From: Rubricoccaceae bacterium | GTDB taxonomy: Bacteria > Bacteroidota > Rhodothermia > Rhodothermales > Rubricoccaceae | Assembly (NCBI GenBank): GCA_963811175.1 | Contig: CAWEQE010000002.1 | Span: 276,797-340,796, forward strand | Length of the DNA stretch: 64,000 nucleotides | Direction of reading: 5' to 3' | Shown here: positions 1 through 8,790 of the stretch, piece by piece | Layout of the letters: each line of letters starts with the position of its first letter | Position numbering within the stretch: position 1 is the stretch's first letter | The notes under the pieces: model-generated | What the model was told of the DNA's origin: nothing | The model's database searches: none | What the model saw: the letters and a program-made list of their open reading frames with translations, nothing else | Made by a program: the position numbers and the translations under genes

Positions 1-374
1 GACCCTCCGACGAAGCCGATGGCCTCCCCCTTCCACGCCACCGAGCACGCATGGAGCACGAGGTGGCCCCGCTGACGGAGGATGACGGCGAGCGGCTGGC
101 CGACGAGGCACTGCTCGACGAGGTCCTCGGGCATCTCCTTCTTCCGGTACACCCAGACCTGCTCTCCCCCTTCTGCGAGGTAGTAGAGGCTCCCGTAGAA
201 TTGGGCCGCGACGGCATCTCCGCCGAGCCGGTCGGCGGCGGCGGCGTGGAGATCGTTCCACTCGGCCTCGCCCACCTCCGTGATGACGACGTCACGCGGG
301 GCCTCCTGGCACCGGAGACCTCCCAATCGAATGTCCGAGTGGATACCGAGACCGAACAGCTTGTAGGAATACAT
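1..374 (-). CDS. HPr kinase-like (HprK-related) kinase, N-terminal part; runs off the window edge
   Basis: Not in the ORF track. Manual translation from ATG at 374 gives MYSYKLFGLGIHSDIRLGG...LAVILRQRGHLVLHACSVAWKGEAIGFVGG, typical of the segment just before the P-loop of HprK-related kinases found in lasso clusters. Confidence 0.75.
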   Translation of the reverse strand, partial: MYSYKLFGLGIHSDIRLGGLRCQEAPRDVVITEVGEAEWNDLHAAAADRLGGDAVAAQFYGSLYYLAEGGEQVWVYRKKEMPEDLVEQCLVGQPLAVILRQRGHLVLHACSVAWKGEAIGFVGG

Positions 375-588
375 CCGGCGGGGTCGTCGTGAGCCAACGT
401 TATCGTGCGGTCGAGGAGCATCCTGAAACGGCGCCCCACCCGCTGGGGGGGTGACCACCCAGAAGATAGGGTGAGGCCGCCCACTGGCCCGCTTCTCCAG
501 GCGCCCCATGTCGGTGGCGACGAAGCCTCTGGAGGACGCACGACCTCTCCCTCAGAGCGTGTTGGCACGCGTCTAGAGACGGGCTACC

Positions 589-840
589 TCACGGAGTTGC
601 TCTGGGCAGCACTGATGGGGGTGGCATTCGGATAGCGCACGCGTACTCCGAAGCCCGGCCGGAGAATCCGACGGTGTCGGTGGGCGTGAGGACGGTGTCC
701 CGCCCGGTCGCGCTGCCCGTCAACCCGGTCAGAGCGACGAGGTCTCCGTGCTCCGTCATGCGCGGCGTGACGTTCGTGTTCGTGAGATGGAGGTTCAGAC
801 GAGCCGCCGCGGAGGCGCGGCGGCGAGCCTTCCTCCTCAC
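589..840 (-). CDS. Candidate lasso peptide precursor (start uncertain)
   Basis: Frame encodes N-V-T-P-R-M-T-E-H-G-D-L-V-A-L-T-G, matching YxxPxLxxxGxxxxxT spacing with Y>N and L>M. A putative core LTGSATGRD(9)... follows. It lies directly after the cyclase. An in-frame GTG at 840 overlaps the cyclase TGA. Confidence 0.55.
   Translation of the reverse strand: MRRKARRRASAAARLNLHLTNTNVTPRMTEHGDLVALTGLTGSATGRDTVLTPTDTVGFSGRASEYACAIRMPPPSVLPRATP
803..824. other. GC-rich 9-bp hairpin immediately downstream of the cyclase stop, upstream of the precursor leader motif
   Basis: GCCGCCGCG-GAGG-CGCGGCGGC; no U-tract on the minus strand. Confidence 0.5.
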
Positions 841-2870
841 AAGAGCCCGTTCCGTTCGAGCAGCTTGTAGGTCCCGTACACCTGGACGAGGAGCGTCCGC
901 GCCGGGTCCGACTGCGTCGGATCGGCGGCCATCGCGCGACGGTGTAGGTCGCGGAGCCGCTCGGGCTGCACCACGTCTCCGAACGTTCCAGGATCGTCCA
1001 CCCACGCCGCCAGACGCTCGCCCTCGATGCGCGTGAGCGTGTGAACGAAGGCAGACGTGATGTCCGCCTTGCCCCCCCGGTTCGCAATGGACGTCGGCAA
1101 CACGTCTCTGAGCGCGGCGCGGAGCACGTAGCGGGTCCACCCGTCGTGTAGCAAGAGGGCCGGCGGGAGCCCGATGCAGTACTCCACCAGCGGACGGTAG
1201 AGGAACGGGTGGCGCGACTCGACGCCGAACGAGCCCGCGGCGAGGTTCGTCAGCGTAATCCCTCGGTTGAACCGTGGATGCTGGAGGACCATGCGGCGTC
1301 CCTCGACCGCGTCCGATGGGTCGAGGTCGCTGAACGACGACTCGTCCGCGGCGTCGATCCGGCCCCTCAGGTTCACGCGACGGGCGAGGTCGGGATCGAC
1401 CAAGTCCAACCCCAGCGCGTTGATCTCGCCGGTCTTTTCGTCCCCGTCGGCTCCACGCCCGAGAACGGCTCGTGCTAACGCCCGGAAGAGCTGGGAGCGC
1501 GAGACGCCGAGGTGCTGGCGGGCGCCGCGGACGCCCCGAAGCAAGCTCTTCCACTCCCGGCGGGTGGCGGCCTCGTGCAGGACTGGGTACCCGTACCCCG
1601 CGAAGATGCGGCCCGTCGAGCGCAGGGTTTCCTGGAAGGGCTGGAAGTGGGCCTCTCCGTCGAGCCGGCTGGCGACAGCCGGAGCGAGCCGAGCGAACTC
1701 GGCCCAGTCGCCCTCCTGAGCCAGCCGGCGGAGGTACTCAAGACCGTGGCCCACGACGTTGTCCCCGTCGAGGCCGTCGAGCAGTACGCCGACACCGGCT
1801 TGCTTCGCGGCCCCGACGAGCCCCCACACGATGTGCTGGTTCCCCCCGACGGGCTCGTCGTCGAGGGTGTCGTAGAGGTCGTCCAGGTTGGAGAGGGGGC
1901 CGAGTTGCGCGCCGTCGACGAAGTGAGGCACGATCCCTCCTTGCTCCACCACGGCGTCGATGTAGACCCGCTCATCGGACACCGGGACGCCTTCGTAGAT
2001 GGCCGAGAACGCGTGGAGCGTCTCCCCCCGCTCCGACAGCACCTCACGAGCCACACAGGCGACGGCCGAGGAGTCGAGCCCACCGCTGAGGTGAGAGCCG
2101 ATCGGGACGACGCTCCGGGTGCAGCGCGTGACGCCCTCCCAGAACCGCGACCGGAACCCCTCCACCAGATCGTCCACCGAGCGCCCGTCCAGGCCGGCCT
2201 CCGGCTCGAGCTCGTAGTACGACTCGGTGCGGAGCCCTTGCGGCTCGACGACCAGCCTCTCTGCCGCACCGAGCAAGAACACCCCGTCGTAGATGGTCCC
2301 GTACGGGTCCTCGCGGAGCAGGGCGAGGTACTCCGCCAGCTTCCCCTCGTTCAACCGCTTCGGGACCTCTTCCAGCGTGAAGAGCGCCTTCGGCTCGCTC
2401 GCAAACGCGAAGACGGCCGGGCTGTGGTAGTAGTAGAGCGGCCGGACGCCGAACGGGTCCCGCGCACAGGTCAGCGTCCTCTCCTCCCGGTCCCAGATGG
2501 CGAGCGCGAAGTCCCCGACCAGCTGGCGGAAGGCGTCTGCTCCCCAGCGGAGGTAGGCGCGGAGCGCCAGCGCGCCGTCTGACATCGTCGCGACCTCGTC
2601 CGGCGAGAGCCTCATCCGTCGCCCGAGGTCCTCACGGTTGTCGAGCCGGAGGTCCGCGACCATCCGGTAGCGACCTCCCGCCGCCTCGACCACGCCGTCG
2701 TCGGTGGTCGCGGTCGTGCGGTGCGCCCGGTATCCGAGGGCCACCGGCCCATCCTCCAGGACCGACTCTGAGTCCGGCCCTCGATGTGAGAGGGGCCCAA
2801 TCATGTCCCGCGCCGCTCGCTCGCTCGCGTCTTGGCCAGTGAGTCGGTAGTAGCCTGAAATAGCGCTCAT
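837..2870 (-). CDS. Asparagine synthetase-like protein / lasso peptide cyclase (C protein)
   Basis: Likely start MSAISGYY at 2870. Has CARDPFGVRPLYY, FASEPKAL, the PP-loop LSGGLDSS and ESRHPFL. Ser replaces the catalytic Cys of the Ntn glutaminase domain. Confidence 0.85.
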   Translation of the reverse strand: MSAISGYYRLTGQDASERAARDMIGPLSHRGPDSESVLEDGPVALGYRAHRTTATTDDGVVEAAGGRYRMVADLRLDNREDLGRRMRLSPDEVATMSDGALALRAYLRWGADAFRQLVGDFALAIWDREERTLTCARDPFGVRPLYYYHSPAVFAFASEPKALFTLEEVPKRLNEGKLAEYLALLREDPYGTIYDGVFLLGAAERLVVEPQGLRTESYYELEPEAGLDGRSVDDLVEGFRSRFWEGVTRCTRSVVPIGSHLSGGLDSSAVACVAREVLSERGETLHAFSAIYEGVPVSDERVYIDAVVEQGGIVPHFVDGAQLGPLSNLDDLYDTLDDEPVGGNQHIVWGLVGAAKQAGVGVLLDGLDGDNVVGHGLEYLRRLAQEGDWAEFARLAPAVASRLDGEAHFQPFQETLRSTGRIFAGYGYPVLHEAATRREWKSLLRGVRGARQHLGVSRSQLFRALARAVLGRGADGDEKTGEINALGLDLVDPDLARRVNLRGRIDAADESSFSDLDPSDAVEGRRMVLQHPRFNRGITLTNLAAGSFGVESRHPFLYRPLVEYCIGLPPALLLHDGWTRYVLRAALRDVLPTSIANRGGKADITSAFVHTLTRIEGERLAAWVDDPGTFGDVVQPERLRDLHRRAMAADPTQSDPARTLLVQVYGTYKLLERNGLL

Positions 2871-3247
2871 GTAGGTCTTTGGGTGTAGAGCGTGCGCAAG
2901 GGCTCGCGGCCTCTCCCCAGGATACCCTGCTCCTGGGGAGCTGCATGCGTGGAAGTTTTGAGACGCCGGCGCCCTGTGGCCGCACGCGGCCTTGGCCGGG
3001 GTGGCGCATCCTCCAGCCTCAACATGAGCCAACTCCCCTCCTCCTGCGGAACCGAAAGCGCTTTCCTCTATCCGCCCTGTTGGTGACACTGTGGCAACCG
3101 TGAGGGGGTCCGTGCATTGCCCCTCGATTCCACCACCGCCGCCAGCTTGTGAGCTGGCGCTCGTATCGAGACCTCTAGTTGATGCCCTCACCCGCCCCTC
3201 TCGGCCGAGCGCTGAGCCCCCCTCCGACCTTCCATCCCCTTCTCAGC

Positions 3248-4003
3248 GTGTCGCTCGCCAAAAGCACTGTGGGCACCTCTCCCTCGCGTTCGGTCTCGCC
3301 CATCCGGGTCGTCGCCATCGACGACCACCCGGCGGTTCGGGACGCGATCGCCCAGGCCGTCGCGGCCCAGCCCGACATGGACCTCGCCGGCGTCGCCGGG
3401 TCCGCCGCCGAGGCCTTCGACCTCCTCCGGACCGCGGACCCCGACGTCGCCGTCGTCGACATCTCCCTCGGCGACGCCCACGGGCTCGACCTCGTCCAGA
3501 ACCTCCGCGCCCAGCACCCCGACCTCGAGGTCGTCGTCTTCTCGATGTACGACGAGGCCGTCTACGCCGAGCGCGCGCTCCGGGCCGGGGCCCGCGGCTA
3601 CGTCCGGAAGTCGGAGCCGACCACGGCCGTGACCGAGGCGATCCGGGCCGCGGCCGCCGGCGAGATCTACCTCGCCCGGCGCGCGGCGAGCCGGATCCTC
3701 GCCCGCGTCGCGTTCGGGGCCGAGCGCGGTGCCCCGACCAAGGGCGAGGGCGGGGGCCGGGCCGGGGGGCCGGGGGCCGGGCCCGCCGAGGGGCTCGAGG
3801 AGCTGACCGACCGGGAGATGGCCGTGTTCCAGCTCCTGGGGCAGGGGCGGCCGCCGGAGGAGATCGCCGACCGGCTGAACCTCTCGCGGAAGACGGTCGA
3901 GACGTACCGGCGGCGGGCCAAGGAGAAGCTCGGGCTCGACTCGGTCACGGAGCTGCTCCAGTTCGCCATCCGGTGGACCTACGCTCAGGGGACCGACAGC
4001 TAG
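3248..4003 (+). CDS. NarL/LuxR-family response regulator (REC + LuxR HTH)
   Basis: VVAIDDHP, VAVVDISL (phospho-Asp), GARGYVRK, and LTDREMAVFQLLGQG...LSRKTVETYR. Start approximate. Confidence 0.9.
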   Translation: MSLAKSTVGTSPSRSVSPIRVVAIDDHPAVRDAIAQAVAAQPDMDLAGVAGSAAEAFDLLRTADPDVAVVDISLGDAHGLDLVQNLRAQHPDLEVVVFSMYDEAVYAERALRAGARGYVRKSEPTTAVTEAIRAAAAGEIYLARRAASRILARVAFGAERGAPTKGEGGGRAGGPGAGPAEGLEELTDREMAVFQLLGQGRPPEEIADRLNLSRKTVETYRRRAKEKLGLDSVTELLQFAIRWTYAQGTDS

Positions 4004-5133
4004 GACCTCAGCTGGTCAGGCCGGGCGGGTAGCGGCGCCTCCTCATGCGGACTCACCATGCGCTCGATCAGGCGCCGGAGGGCCACGTAGCTGAGGTATC
4101 GAATCTGGCCTCGTACATCGTCCTGTGCTTGGAGAACGAGCCGCGCCCGGTCGCCCCCGCTCATGACCCACTCCTCGTGGAACGTCCTCAGGTGAGACTG
4201 GACGTGGACGGAGAGGGAGGCGGCTTTGGGATCGGACCGGGCACGATCGACGACCTCCTTTGGGAACGGAGCGCCGATCTCGTCGGCCGCGACGAGGACG
4301 CCTACGCGAAAGGCTCGGAGGCTCTTCGTCTGCTCAGCCAAGGTCTCCAACTCATTCCAGTCATCGACGAACGGCCCCAGCTGGGCTAGGTCGCTCGCGA
4401 GTCGGAGGCGGTTCCACTGGTCCTTCAGGGCGTTCACACAGAGCGTGAGGAACAGGTCGTGCCAACCGAGTGCACGGACGGCCTCGCCTCCCACCGTGAT
4501 CTCACGCGACCTCTGGATCAGAACGTCGTAGTCCCCGGCATAGGAGTATCCACGGGGTACCACGCTGGTGTGCGCGTCCACGGTCGACACCTGCGTCCCG
4601 ACTCGGCGGCCGAACGTGTACTCTCCGTGTACGAAGAGATAACCTTTGAGCTGGCGTTCGCTCTTCTTCAGGCGGTCGAATCCTATATCGAGGAGGACAC
4701 GCTCGAGCCGGGAGAAGTCGCCTGCCCGCACGAGAAGGTCGTTGTCAACGAACGGCCGGTAGGCCATGCCCCCGTACGCCTCTGCCAACGACGGCCCCTT
4801 GAGGACCAAAAATGGGATCTCGACCTCCTTGAGCGCCCGTGCAATCTTCGCCATCTCCGCGGACAGGAACAGGACCTGGACGCCTCCCTCCACCGCTCGG
4901 CGCCGGAGGTAGTCGACAACCTCGGGAGGGACGCCCTCCGGTTCGTGCTCCTTCAGGTGAACCCACATCATGGGGAGGACCCGGTGGTACGCGGCCAGCC
5001 CAATCACTCCTTTCCAGTCCACATTCTCCAGCCCCGCCTCCAGCGCGTCGATGTGGTGATCGTCCAGTCGCGCTCTGGCGAACAGGCGGACCAGTTCGTA
5101 CTCAGCGTCGGTGATAGAGGCGTAGTGTCCCAT
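4000..5133 (-). CDS. Nucleotidyltransferase family protein (NTP_transf_5 type, lasso-cluster associated)
   Basis: IPFLVLKGPSLAEAYGG...RPFVDNDLLV resembles the LKG...R...D.DLLV motif. Start MGHYAS at 5133. Confidence 0.85.
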   Translation of the reverse strand: MGHYASITDAEYELVRLFARARLDDHHIDALEAGLENVDWKGVIGLAAYHRVLPMMWVHLKEHEPEGVPPEVVDYLRRRAVEGGVQVLFLSAEMAKIARALKEVEIPFLVLKGPSLAEAYGGMAYRPFVDNDLLVRAGDFSRLERVLLDIGFDRLKKSERQLKGYLFVHGEYTFGRRVGTQVSTVDAHTSVVPRGYSYAGDYDVLIQRSREITVGGEAVRALGWHDLFLTLCVNALKDQWNRLRLASDLAQLGPFVDDWNELETLAEQTKSLRAFRVGVLVAADEIGAPFPKEVVDRARSDPKAASLSVHVQSHLRTFHEEWVMSGGDRARLVLQAQDDVRGQIRYLSYVALRRLIERMVSPHEEAPLPARPDQLRS

Positions 5134-5279
5134 CGTGAGCGAACGTAGGATAGTCAACCCCGCCTCAATGCATACTGTGGAATCGACTCGGAGCGCATCC
5201 GAGGGGCGGCTTCGTTGCCGTCCCCGGACGGAAGATCAACATACGGAGCCTCTGCCCCTCCTCGGGTCCGGGAGCAACC

Positions 5280-5345: not shown

Positions 5346-5568
5346 CATACATCCTACTGTGGTGGCGCGTCCGACGCAGCCGACCGGAACCCGACCCTGC
5401 CGAGCCGATCTAGGGTCTGTGTGGGACCTCATGCGGCGCCCCCTTTCCCCGTCCGTCATTCCTGCGTAGGCGGGGCTCATCGGACGCCTCAGAAGGGACT
5501 GGCCCCCCACCTGCGCGGGGATGACGTCGGAAGGGAGTTCGTGTACAAGCCGGACCGTTCCCACTTCG

Positions 5569-6672
5569 TCACGGACGCAACCTCATCTCGGCCATCACTG
5601 CTCGGTGGTCCGAAAGTCCCGGGGGTCCGGTGGCGGCCGCGAGCACGTCCCATTCTGGACTCGCGAAGACCGCATCGATCTGGACGAGCGGTCGATCGTT
5701 GGGGTAGGTCGGAGCCCATCCAGGCGCCATCCGAATGGCATCTCGCAGGCTGGCGGAGATTGCAGCGTAGACCCACTGGTGGGGAGTCGAGTTGAGGTCG
5801 CCGGCGACGAGGAACGGGATGGTTTCTTCCTCCAAGAGAGTTCGGAGACGCTCAGCTTCCTGAGCCCGCAGCACGAAGTCGCGCCTTAACCCTTCTACCG
5901 ACTGGAGCCAGTCGCGGAGGTCCGTCGAGGGAGTCGGCATCGAGGGGCGGTCTTCGTTGAACGACCGGAGGTGGACGTTGTAGACCGCCACGTCGCGGCC
6001 GTCCCACTCGAGGGTCACACGCGAGTACCGACCGGCGCTCTCGTCCCCCGCTGCTCCGAGCGACCCGGCTGTGTGGGTGCCGATGGGCAAGCGTGTCAGC
6101 GTCGTCACGCTGCTCTCGTCGTCGGACTCGGGGGCTCGGTACCCTGCAGCGAGCGCGGCCAAGACGGGGGGAGGAGCCGAAAACACGGGCCCGACTTCCT
6201 CTACTACCGTCCGATGAAGAGCGGCTTCTTGAAACAGGACGAGGTCGGGCCGCACACGGTCGAGGACGCCTTCCATCAACGCGTGCGCCGGTGGCCCTCC
6301 CTTCCCAGCATTCAGGCTGACGATCCGAAAGGAAGTCTCCCGTCTCTCCGTCAATGCACGTTCCTCGGAGAGAAGAGGCACGGTGGTGAGGGGAATGAAC
6401 CGAACCGCAGCCGCGCCCACGAGGGCCGCGTGCGCGCCGACTCCAACCCAGCGGAGGACCCGGCCCTTCGGCGGCCAACGCGCCCACACGGCGCTCGTCA
6501 AGACGGTCCCGACAGCCGTCGCAGGCAACGCCAGCGCTGCGAGTTGGAGACGCCACTCCACGGCAGGGGGGACAGACCGAGCCGCGTATCCGAGCACGAA
6601 CAACGCGGAGACCGCAGCATCAGCGGCGGCGAACAGGCCCCACCCGACCCGCTTTCTCACGCTCACCTTCAC
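5569..6672 (-). CDS. Membrane-anchored endonuclease/exonuclease/phosphatase (EEP) family protein
   Basis: N-terminal TM helices, SLNAG, LFQEA, YNVHL, VAGDLNS, QIDAVF and SDH motifs. Start approximate (GTG 6672). Confidence 0.85.
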   Translation of the reverse strand: MKVSVRKRVGWGLFAAADAAVSALFVLGYAARSVPPAVEWRLQLAALALPATAVGTVLTSAVWARWPPKGRVLRWVGVGAHAALVGAAAVRFIPLTTVPLLSEERALTERRETSFRIVSLNAGKGGPPAHALMEGVLDRVRPDLVLFQEAALHRTVVEEVGPVFSAPPPVLAALAAGYRAPESDDESSVTTLTRLPIGTHTAGSLGAAGDESAGRYSRVTLEWDGRDVAVYNVHLRSFNEDRPSMPTPSTDLRDWLQSVEGLRRDFVLRAQEAERLRTLLEEETIPFLVAGDLNSTPHQWVYAAISASLRDAIRMAPGWAPTYPNDRPLVQIDAVFASPEWDVLAAATGPPGLSDHRAVMAEMRLRP

Positions 6673-6748
6673 CGTGTTGCGAGCACACAGCAGCCCTGAC
6701 GAACGCTGTCGTTCACCGCGAGGACTCTCGCGAACGCCCCTCGTCTCC

Positions 6749-7273
6749 TCACGCTTGTTCCGTGGCCGACGGACGTGGGCGGACAGGCCGGCTCTCGGAC
6801 GGCCGGTCGGTAGCGGGCCGGAACGGGGCATACGTCGTCCTAGAGTCGGCGCCTCCGATGACGACAGTCCCCTCGTGCTCGAGCCATGCGTGCGCCTGAA
6901 ACGTTCCGTCGGCGGATCGGGTAGCGCCCAAGTGAAGGTCTGTGTCGATTCCGCAGGATCGCAGAAGGCGACGGGCTACGAGCGCCTGGGTCAAGCAGGG
7001 GCGATCACGGAGAGCACGCTTCGAAACAGCACCGATGGCCCAGACGGTGACTTTCGCTTCTGCCCAGTCGGGGGGACGTGGAGAAACGGTCTGCCGCTCG
7101 AACGCTGCCGACACCAGCCGCCACGGGAAGACCGCCAGCGCGGCCCGCGTCGCTGGAACCCAAGCGAGTGCCCGAGCCAGCGCCGCCCACTCCCGCCCGG
7201 AGAGAGACCCCAGCGTGCGTACGTGGCGCGACGCGCGGCGGAGGGCAGCGAAGCGAGCGGTCCCGGAGTTCAT
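6749..7273 (-). CDS. Lasso peptide B2 protein (transglutaminase-like leader protease)
   Basis: Start MNSG at 7273 overlaps the PqqD stop by 4 bp. Has PCLTQAL (Cys) and AHAWLE (His). Confidence 0.88.
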   Translation of the reverse strand: MNSGTARFAALRRASRHVRTLGSLSGREWAALARALAWVPATRAALAVFPWRLVSAAFERQTVSPRPPDWAEAKVTVWAIGAVSKRALRDRPCLTQALVARRLLRSCGIDTDLHLGATRSADGTFQAHAWLEHEGTVVIGGADSRTTYAPFRPATDRPSESRPVRPRPSATEQA

Positions 7274-7548
7274 TGGACGGTAATCAGCCCCCGACGCTCC
7301 AGGTCTCCGACGAATGCGGTGACGTCTCCAAAAAGCCGGTTGCGGTCCACATCGAACTCGTCGAGCAAGCGGTCCACGATGGAGTCGATGGTGATGGTCT
7401 CCTGCGCGAGGTCGAGGATGCGAGCCGCGACCTCGTTCAGGCCGAAGTAGGTCCCGGACGTAGGATCGAGCAAAACAGCCTCGCTTCCCAGGTCGGCAAC
7501 GGCAACGTTCTGGGAGACGACGACGGTCGCGTCTGGAGAGAGGGACAT
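7270..7548 (-). CDS. PqqD-family RiPP recognition element (lasso B1/E protein)
   Basis: 92 aa; EAVLLDPTSGTYFGLNEVAARI...FVGDLERRGLI. Confidence 0.9.
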   Translation of the reverse strand: MSLSPDATVVVSQNVAVADLGSEAVLLDPTSGTYFGLNEVAARILDLAQETITIDSIVDRLLDEFDVDRNRLFGDVTAFVGDLERRGLITVQ

Positions 7549-7563
7549 CAGGTGTACGCGGTG

Positions 7564-8790
7564 TCAGGTAGGGTTCTGGAGGGCCGGCTCGTGAGACGCG
7601 CGCTCCCCAGCGGAAACTATGCCGTCTCCTCCTTCGACAGCCTCGGATTCTTTCAACGGGTACTCCCCCGCCCACTCGTCGTCGATGTTCGGCGTCTCGC
7701 GCTGCGTCAGAGCTGGGATCGGACGCAGAGAGGGCGACGAGTACGGGAAGCGGACGTAGCCTAACCGGAGAAGGAGAGCGACGATCACGACCGCCGCCGC
7801 CGCCATCGCGGCTGTGCCCCCTGTCCAGGTCGAGAAGCTCATGAGCACGGCGAGAACGCCGAACATCGACGCCACTCCGTACAGGACGATCACCGCCCGG
7901 CGCGTCTCCATCCGGTCGACCATCCGGTGATGGATGTGGTCCCGATCCGGGGCGTAGATCGACCGCTTCCCGACGGCCCGCCGCACCATCGACAAGACGG
8001 TGTCCAAAATGGGGAGGCCGAGCGCGAGCACGGGGACGAGGAGACCCAGGATAGGATTGCTACTGGCGGGCGCCGTGATCGCGTAGACCGCCAGGGAGTA
8101 CCCGAGAAAGAGGCTCCCCGAATCGCCCATAAAGATGGTCGCGGGGCTGAAGTTGTGGACGAGGAATCCTCCCACGGCCCCCACGAACACGGCCGCGACG
8201 GCCGCCAGTGCGAGGTCCCCGGAAAGTCCGAACACGACGGCCAAGCTCACGAACGCGATCCCGACCACTCCCCCGGCGAGCCCGTCGATCCCATCGATCA
8301 TGTTCACGGCGTTGGTGACTCCCACCACCCACAGGATCGTGAGCGTGGCGCCCAAGGTGGACGCAGCGGCAGGGGCCATGCCGAGCCCAACGAGGGGCGA
8401 GAGGTCCACGTTCACACCCACGTACACCAATCCGGCAGCCACGAGGGCCTCTACGACCAGTCTCGCCTTGAACCCAAGGCCCCGTACGTCGTCAATGGCT
8501 CCGGTCGCCGCCATGATACAGGCGCCCAACACGACGAAGGGGTGGAGCCCAGATCCCGCGAGGGAGAGCCGGGGGGCCGCCCACAGCACGAGAGCCATGC
8601 CGCACACCGTCCCGCAAAAGATGGCGACGCCTCCGATGGACGGCGTCACCCGTCGGTGAAGCTTCCGCCGGCCGTCCGGCTGGTCTGTCCATCCCCGCCG
8701 GACGGCGAGCCGACCCACGAGCGGAGTCATCCATGCCGTCACCCCGAACGCGACGGCGAATCCAGCGAGGACGAGATAGAAGAGCGTCAT
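7564..8790 (-). CDS. MraY/WecA/TagO-family undecaprenyl-phosphate sugar-1-phosphate transferase
   Basis: RKLH...PSIGG, GAIDD, NAVNMIDGIDGLA, FMGDSGS, DRDHIHH; polytopic. Confidence 0.92.
   Translation of the reverse strand: MTLFYLVLAGFAVAFGVTAWMTPLVGRLAVRRGWTDQPDGRRKLHRRVTPSIGGVAIFCGTVCGMALVLWAAPRLSLAGSGLHPFVVLGACIMAATGAIDDVRGLGFKARLVVEALVAAGLVYVGVNVDLSPLVGLGMAPAAASTLGATLTILWVVGVTNAVNMIDGIDGLAGGVVGIAFVSLAVVFGLSGDLALAAVAAVFVGAVGGFLVHNFSPATIFMGDSGSLFLGYSLAVYAITAPASSNPILGLLVPVLALGLPILDTVLSMVRRAVGKRSIYAPDRDHIHHRMVDRMETRRAVIVLYGVASMFGVLAVLMSFSTWTGGTAAMAAAAVVIVALLLRLGYVRFPYSSPSLRPIPALTQRETPNIDDEWAGEYPLKESEAVEGGDGIVSAGERASHEPALQNPT

Follow-up and report, generated by a model that had tools for sequence, protein, structure and literature searches.

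The window analysed here, a 64,000-nucleotide stretch from the genome of a Rubricoccaceae bacterium (G000, contig C2, 276797-340796), contains lasso peptide genes with a short open frame, here called pepW, between the cyclase and kinase genes, and this raises the question of whether pepW encodes the peptide that the cluster matures. As assembled, pepW is a degenerate lasso-precursor homolog whose open frame runs on the minus strand from GTG840 to the stop TGA at 591-589 (589-840, 83 codons). The preliminary description had proposed an unusual class of precursor, a decaying gene or a gene containing an indel; of these the decaying gene proved to be the best supported, and an indel is also present in the sequence as assembled.

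Judged by its predicted proteins, the lasso cluster at this locus is complete and belongs to the kinase/nucleotidyltransferase type set out in PMC8498205 and PMC10368454. On the minus strand it comprises a PqqD-like recognition element (RRE), B1 (7270-7548, Pfam PqqD 71.5 bits), a leader peptidase, B2 (6749-7270, Transglut_core3), an endonuclease/exonuclease/phosphatase (EEP)-family protein (5569-6831, PF03372), an NTP_transf_5 nucleotidyltransferase which is a tailoring candidate (4000-5157, Pfam 153 bits), and an Asn-synthase-like lasso cyclase C of 677 amino acids (837-2870; Pfam Asn_synthase and GATase_7) matching NF033535 over its full length with 532 bits against a cut-off of 525. A LuxR-type response regulator is encoded on the plus strand at 3179-4003. 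Beyond pepW, the N-terminal part of an HprK-like kinase (1-374, minus strand, ATG at 374-372) runs off the window; its full reading frame (L014:11496-12509) carries Hpr_kinase_C and has an ortholog in the relative G007, and an ABC exporter (ABC_tran, L014:9580-11448) follows it outside the window. The PqqD, Transglut_core3 and NF033535 matches all fall within 7 kb, on the same strand, and the proposal that a lasso-precursor homolog sits beside B1, B2 and C is thus supported. At E<=1e-5 no B2 homolog other than that of the window was detected anywhere in the genome.

Several features of the surroundings were also recorded. Against the single B2 homolog detected at that threshold stand three or four lasso-type cyclases in the genome. 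In the sister species G010 (a Rubricoccaceae MAG from a Microflora-Danica-type long-read soil project, which bears out the phylum assumed in the preliminary description) the orthologous cyclase and the best B2 homolog are on different contigs. The gene immediately upstream of B1, in the same orientation, encodes a WecA/MraY-like glycosyltransferase of family 4 (7564-8790, minus strand), and past the ABC exporter there are YjbH-like and DUF7467 genes; the lasso cluster is thus embedded in polysaccharide-related genes. Part of the LuxR-type regulator (window 3308-4003, plus strand) is duplicated 9.7 kb away (C2:270211-270907, L014 ~5415-6111); over ~690 nt the copies are 100% identical apart from one inserted C, by which the second copy is frameshifted. 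Either the gene was duplicated very recently and the frameshift is real, or this is an artefact of assembly or polishing. Also outside the window, at L014 507-3152 (C2:265303-267948), genes for a second Asn-synthase-like protein (583 aa) and an HprK-like kinase (295 aa) adjoin each other without a precursor, B1 or B2; an APS kinase is next to this pair, which has an ortholog in G010 and may either provide additional tailoring of the long tail (such as a second lactam) or be what is left of a cluster.

The codons of pepW from AAC (774-772) to ACC (729-727), read on the minus strand as NVTPRMTEHGDLVALT, encode N-V-T-P-R-M-T-E-H-G-D-L-V-A-L-T, and are followed by GGG (726-724) for Gly(-1), TTG (723-721) for the core residue Leu1 and GAC (699-697) for Asp9. 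Against the leader pattern YxxPxLx3Gx5Tx this gives N(-17), P(-14), M(-12), G(-8) and T(-2), with an acidic residue in the expected interval of core positions 7-9 (Asp9) after Thr(-2)-x, and the assembled frame yields a core of 44 amino acids beginning LTGSATGRD. The motif as first read, with Asn in place of the expected Tyr (AAC versus TAC), was confirmed both in the sequence and by paralog alignment, where AAC(-17) aligns base for base with the TAC of the closest paralog. The open frame is no evidence by itself, because the genome has a G+C content of 72.5% and the pepW frame stays open for 382 codons.

A search for pepW-like sequences in related genomes, which had been suggested as a check, was productive: a six-frame search of 41 related genomes found paralogs in the present genome and in two congeners, and the genus holds 12 copies of the family across three species. 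pepW itself as a query gave no match among 5.8 billion proteins, and that collection contained only 15 relatives of the family, one named “hypothetical protein”, the rest unnamed and none annotated. When pepW was aligned by hhalign to a profile of these 15 relatives from which pepW had been excluded, the match had a probability of 98.2% and an E value of 2.7e-14 over 52 columns, ending at ...RMPP, and pepW scored 96.5 bits against a model built from the family alignment. The segment that is homologous in frame to the family extends over 619-774 on the minus strand and includes the leader from N(-17) to G(-1) (774-724), L1, D9 and the first Cys (639-637). The closest relative of pepW is a stand-alone gene at C1:194729-194938, with 85% DNA identity over 130 nt (window 638-767 versus C1:194784-194913). 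These sequence comparisons place pepW in a small Rubricoccaceae family of unannotated lasso precursors. That the motif might have arisen by chance in an open frame rich in G+C, unrelated to lasso precursors, has to be considered since P..G..T alone is expected many times in 64 kb and pepW falls below the cut-offs of two lasso-precursor models: for the NCBIfam lasso leader NF033521 (cut-off 19) intact paralogs pass with 22 and 25 bits while pepW fails with 16.0, and for NF033528 (lasso_cyano), a model of 35 positions that stops where the long tail of the family begins, all copies are sub-threshold over leader and ring (pepW 17.7 against a cut-off of 33). The hhalign match to an independent profile, the DNA identity to the paralog and the exact syntenic slot refute this explanation, the probability of which we consider negligible.

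The family alignment gives the leader pattern M-x(2-7)-Y-x-x-P-x-L-x-x-Y/L-G-x-x-x-x-L-T-G and the core pattern F-S/T-G-S-x-T-E/Q-Q-D-V-I-F-T-P-N-G-...-G-P-A/S-S-E-F-A-C-Q-I-P-N-P-x-x-x-x-C-.... The Tyr, Pro, Leu and Thr of the leader fall exactly at -17, -14, -12 and -2, positions that have been reported to determine recognition by B1 and B2 (PMC10368454, citing Chekan 2019 and Sumida 2019), and the start of the family core is therefore fixed at Phe1. A core starting at the Gly, with Thr at -1, was rejected, as Y, P and L reach -17, -14 and -12 only if the core begins after Gly(-1). The Asp9 column is invariant in the 12 genus copies and in the 15 database relatives whereas position 7 is occupied by E, Q, F or G, making Asp9 the likely ring acceptor and leading us to reject Glu7 for that role. 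The cleavage site and Leu1-Asp9 assignment originally proposed for pepW thus agree with the family. Family cores are 42-47 aa long, with a tail of ~35 aa carrying two Cys about ten residues apart, so the long core that had been remarked upon in pepW is a family trait and its reading frame was confirmed, but the last 8-9 of its 44 residues (SVLPRATP) are out of the frame used by the family. Leu1, which had been considered unusual, does depart from the Phe1 that is the norm within the genus, but intact precursors of another genus of the same family (G167) combine Asp9 with Leu or Ile at position 1. An AlphaFold2 prediction for an intact paralog with the family alignment gave no fold (pLDDT 53.6).

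The position of pepW downstream of the cyclase had been called atypical, a claim which comparison with other clusters overturned. In G007, whose cyclase is 58% identical, the slot between cyclase and kinase is occupied by three intact tandem precursors and an ABC exporter follows, and G167 has five or six tandem precursors in the same slot, with cores of ~43 aa that begin with Leu or Ile (LTG|LFGSS..D) and contain two Cys. The order cyclase, precursor, kinase is the rule in this Rubricoccaceae lineage. Two other lasso clusters of the present genome (C1:~680427, minus strand, and C2:~2233785, plus strand) have intact precursors directly after their cyclases, with cores of different types (GNGGSSLD... 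and QNFNKCGPNPD...). Conservation of the motif beside orthologous cyclases therefore held for G007 but not for G010, in which the cyclase is 71% identical and the 190-nt spacer between cyclase and kinase contains no trace of a precursor and no family match. The copies found in G010 are four stand-alone (orphan) genes and one divergent in-cluster copy, none of them in its orthologous cyclase-kinase spacer.

Although pepW occupies the expected slot, it differs from the intact members in several respects. Six of the 19 columns that are invariant among 17 intact members are changed (Y-17N, L-12M, F1L, F to L, G to D and P to R), while the leader keeps P(-14), G(-8), T(-2) and G(-1), and the core keeps Asp9, the first Cys and the S-E-x-A-C motif. 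Alignment of the DNA of the four copies in this genome places an indel at about 615-624, with the gap beside a run of five C at 617-621, and leaves the 3' end (573-624, minus strand) frameshifted, with the conserved CAG-TGC codons for Gln-Cys2 (614-609) out of frame. As assembled, pepW consequently has one Cys in frame and its second out of frame; TAG 575-573 closes the ancestral frame, and the alternative frame reads ...HQCCPEQLREVARL*. The frameshift was called from the DNA alignment (CAGTGC and 15 of 22 flanking bases), and a BLASTP comparison of a paralog with the alternative frame (573-719) was not significant.

The pattern of substitution points in the same direction. A Tajima relative-rate test of pepW against its sister copy C1:194729-194938, with the G010 ortholog as outgroup and spanning 50 codons, found 15 unique amino-acid changes in pepW compared to 1 in the sister (P = 5e-4), and 23 compared to 5 at the nucleotide level (P = 9e-4). 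The pepW-specific changes are spread over codon positions 1, 2 and 3 as 6, 9 and 8, compared to 29, 18 and 53% for differences between intact copies. The dN/dS ratio of pepW against its sister (0.67) was indistinguishable from 1 (P = 0.27), whereas that of the sister against the G010 ortholog was 0.14 (P = 6e-7).

There is also little to indicate how pepW would be translated. An ATG start lies 2-7 codons ahead of Tyr(-17) in all 26 intact relatives, barring a few gene calls that are extended upstream or cut short, and the pepW codon that matches it is CTC. No ATG occurs in any frame between the cyclase stop and the Met(-12) codon of pepW (ATG 759-757), and no in-frame ATG, GTG or TTG occurs between GTG840 and that codon, though a CTG is present at 798-796. 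The observation that no ATG precedes the motif was thus correct, and the sole start upstream is GTG 840-838, which overlaps the cyclase stop TGA (839-837). With no ATG, GTG or TTG near the leader and, as assembled, a frameshifted 3' end relative to the family, pepW does not have the form of a translatable gene. Directly after the cyclase stop, a 63-nt stem-loop is predicted on the minus strand at 780-842 (-39.7 kcal/mol; z -3.4; none of 200 shuffles equally stable), and its paired bases take in GTG840 as well as the AGGAGG run that follows. This structure has a perfect 9-bp GC core (GCCGCCGCG/CGCGGCGGC), lacks a T run and is not conserved in G010. Rfam gave no match over window positions 1-3300, a sigma-70 promoter scan gave no match and, of two terminator-like matches, neither lay at the ends of pepW.

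Because pepW lacks a start codon, has lost six of 19 invariant residues, carries an indel, has evolved asymmetrically relative to its sister and is absent as an in-cluster gene from G010, we think it probable that it is a decaying relic, or pseudogene, in the conserved slot between cyclase and kinase, freed from the selective constraint acting on the rest of the family. The opposing explanation is that pepW is functional but divergent: translation would start at GTG840, coupled to termination of the cyclase (or at CTG798 or ATG759), and B1, B2 and C would mature the peptide into a neofunctionalised lasso peptide with a Leu1-Asp9 ring and long tail, different from the products of the orphan copies. 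The GTGA overlap of GTG840 with the cyclase stop is typical of translational coupling and the frame is open, although at this G+C content a chance open frame is expected; P(-14), G(-8), T(-2), G(-1), Asp9 and the first Cys are kept, GC3 is still 0.88, and cores with Leu1 or Ile1 and Asp9 are normal, intact and in tandem in G167. The fast evolution of pepW may moreover reflect diversifying selection on a new product. Pseudomycoidin reportedly matures without leader or peptidase (Zyubko 2019, a work cited in PMC8498205), and a short leader is thus no proof that pepW is inactive. The same holds for the lost Tyr, as BsfA with Tyr(-17) changed to Ala still permits leader removal (PMC10368454) and, with coupling through GTGA plausible, pepW could still function. 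Against this stand the even spread of changes over codon positions and the 15:1 rate asymmetry, the lost invariant residues and out-of-frame second Cys, a start buried in a strong hairpin without the SD-independent ATG seen in all 26 intact relatives, and the gene being wholly missing from the G010 cluster, and we consider a functional pepW unlikely.

The 3' frameshift could alternatively be a homopolymer assembly error, since it sits at a C5 run, the sister MAG G010 derives from long reads and has stops inside a conserved peptidase gene, and the ~690-nt duplicate within the present genome differs by just one inserted C. Low-depth soil metagenome contigs match the window exactly at 941-1175 and 1295-1598, with nothing over 300-900, and no other strain turned up when metagenome contigs were scanned for exact 27-mers. 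Removing one C from 617-621 would change the peptide to ...ACAIRMPPHQCCPEQLREVARL, with both Cys kept, making pepW less degenerate than it looks, which fits either a relic or a functional gene. However, all the cluster enzymes are full length, a genome-wide GC3 frame-switch scan returned no more than 40 candidates in 3.77 Mb, suggesting that indels are not rampant (the scan is crude, an upper bound only, and missed the known regulator frameshift), and the other defects of pepW are substitutions which such errors do not explain. An assembly error here is therefore a possibility that we doubt, if less strongly than we doubt a functional pepW, and dropping the indel leaves the evidence for a relic from the start codon, the invariant residues and the rates intact, as those defects are separate from it.

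The substrates of the pathway are probably supplied by three intact orphan copies in the same genome (C1:194729-194938, C1:127514-127705 and C2:1411070-1411279). These look functional: they are unannotated genes of 60-70 aa with ATG starts, each with its own G+C-rich hairpin and T run (a terminator visible in the DNA), and they are under purifying selection. All sit among unrelated housekeeping genes, the neighbours being, by site, Peptidase_S46, lysozyme and DPP-IV genes; M14 carboxypeptidase and DUF3108 genes; and luciferase-like oxidoreductase, iron-dependent repressor and Nramp genes. The orphan site beside Peptidase_S46 is common to the present genome, G010 and metagenome contigs, so this orphan predates the species split and has been conserved. 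In the metagenome contigs L056-L058 (2649-3769) this orphan has an IS3-family transposase (rve, HTH_Tnp_1) immediately upstream, and such an element is a possible vehicle for precursor dispersal.

We suggest tentatively, giving it a little less than an even chance, that the one cluster, with the only detectable B2, serves dispersed stand-alone precursors in trans, that the species form a series from tandem in-cluster precursors (G007) through a relic plus three orphans (G000) to orphans without an in-cluster gene in that slot (G010), and that the predicted two-Cys cores of 42-47 aa are the longest lasso peptides known. By analogy with established lasso biochemistry, B1 would bind the Y/P/L leader, B2 would cut after Gly(-1), and the cyclase would adenylate Asp9 and join it to residue 1 (Phe, or Leu/Ile in the sister genus), forming a 9-residue ring around the tail. 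The two tail Cys of intact members may then form a class-IV-type tail-tail disulfide, and the kinase, nucleotidyltransferase and EEP enzymes may decorate a Ser or Thr; the orphans would be the substrates so processed, and pepW would be bypassed as a relic. That the phosphorylation site is a ring Ser (Ser2 or Ser4), by analogy with Ser3 of BsfA (PMC10368454), is a guess.

The nearest known systems resemble the family in part. The paeninodin, pseudomycoidin and BsfA clusters (PMC8498205, PMC10368454) likewise have an HprK-like kinase by the precursor, an NTP_transf_5-type nucleotidyltransferase, split B1 and B2, an ABC exporter and a YxxPxL leader, whereas the present cluster has an extra EEP-family phosphatase/nuclease and its precursors are mostly unlinked; paeninodin and pseudomycoidin have a C-terminal Ser as phosphorylation site, whereas none of 27 family sequences ends in Ser. 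Pandonodin, a 33-aa lasso peptide of class IV with a tail-tail disulfide, has the longest tail on record at 18 aa (review PMC13352647). Intact members of the family share with it a long C-terminal tail and two Cys, and a tail-tail disulfide is predicted for them because both Cys lie in the tail; their predicted cores are, however, 42-47 aa with ~35 residues after the ring, pepW as assembled has one in-frame Cys, and pandonodin comes from Proteobacteria whereas this family belongs to the Rhodothermota (Rubricoccaceae) and is known from genes alone. Citrulassin-type lasso peptides, which are actinobacterial, have a Leu1-Asp8 ring and a short core and undergo PAD tailoring. They resemble the predicted pepW core in that a hydrophobic non-Gly residue 1 is joined to Asp.

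What is new here, from sequence, is thus an unannotated family with a very long two-Cys core and precursors mostly unlinked from their cluster, and this family, with its three-species series from in-cluster to orphan genes, is more interesting than pepW itself, which should not be read as the product of the cluster. The predicted cores are far above the 33-aa record and are combined with a predicted tail disulfide and kinase, nucleotidyltransferase and phosphatase tailoring, and the family provides a concrete set of peptides for probing the tail length that the lasso machinery tolerates. RiPP genome mining presumes that precursors are found next to their enzymes; in this cluster the neighbouring gene is probably a relic, and as the likely substrates are unlinked, unannotated genes of 60-70 aa, standard mining tools would miss the product or predict the wrong one. 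If the proposed series is true, precursor genes have escaped from their cluster in this lineage, and three related species capture the transition.
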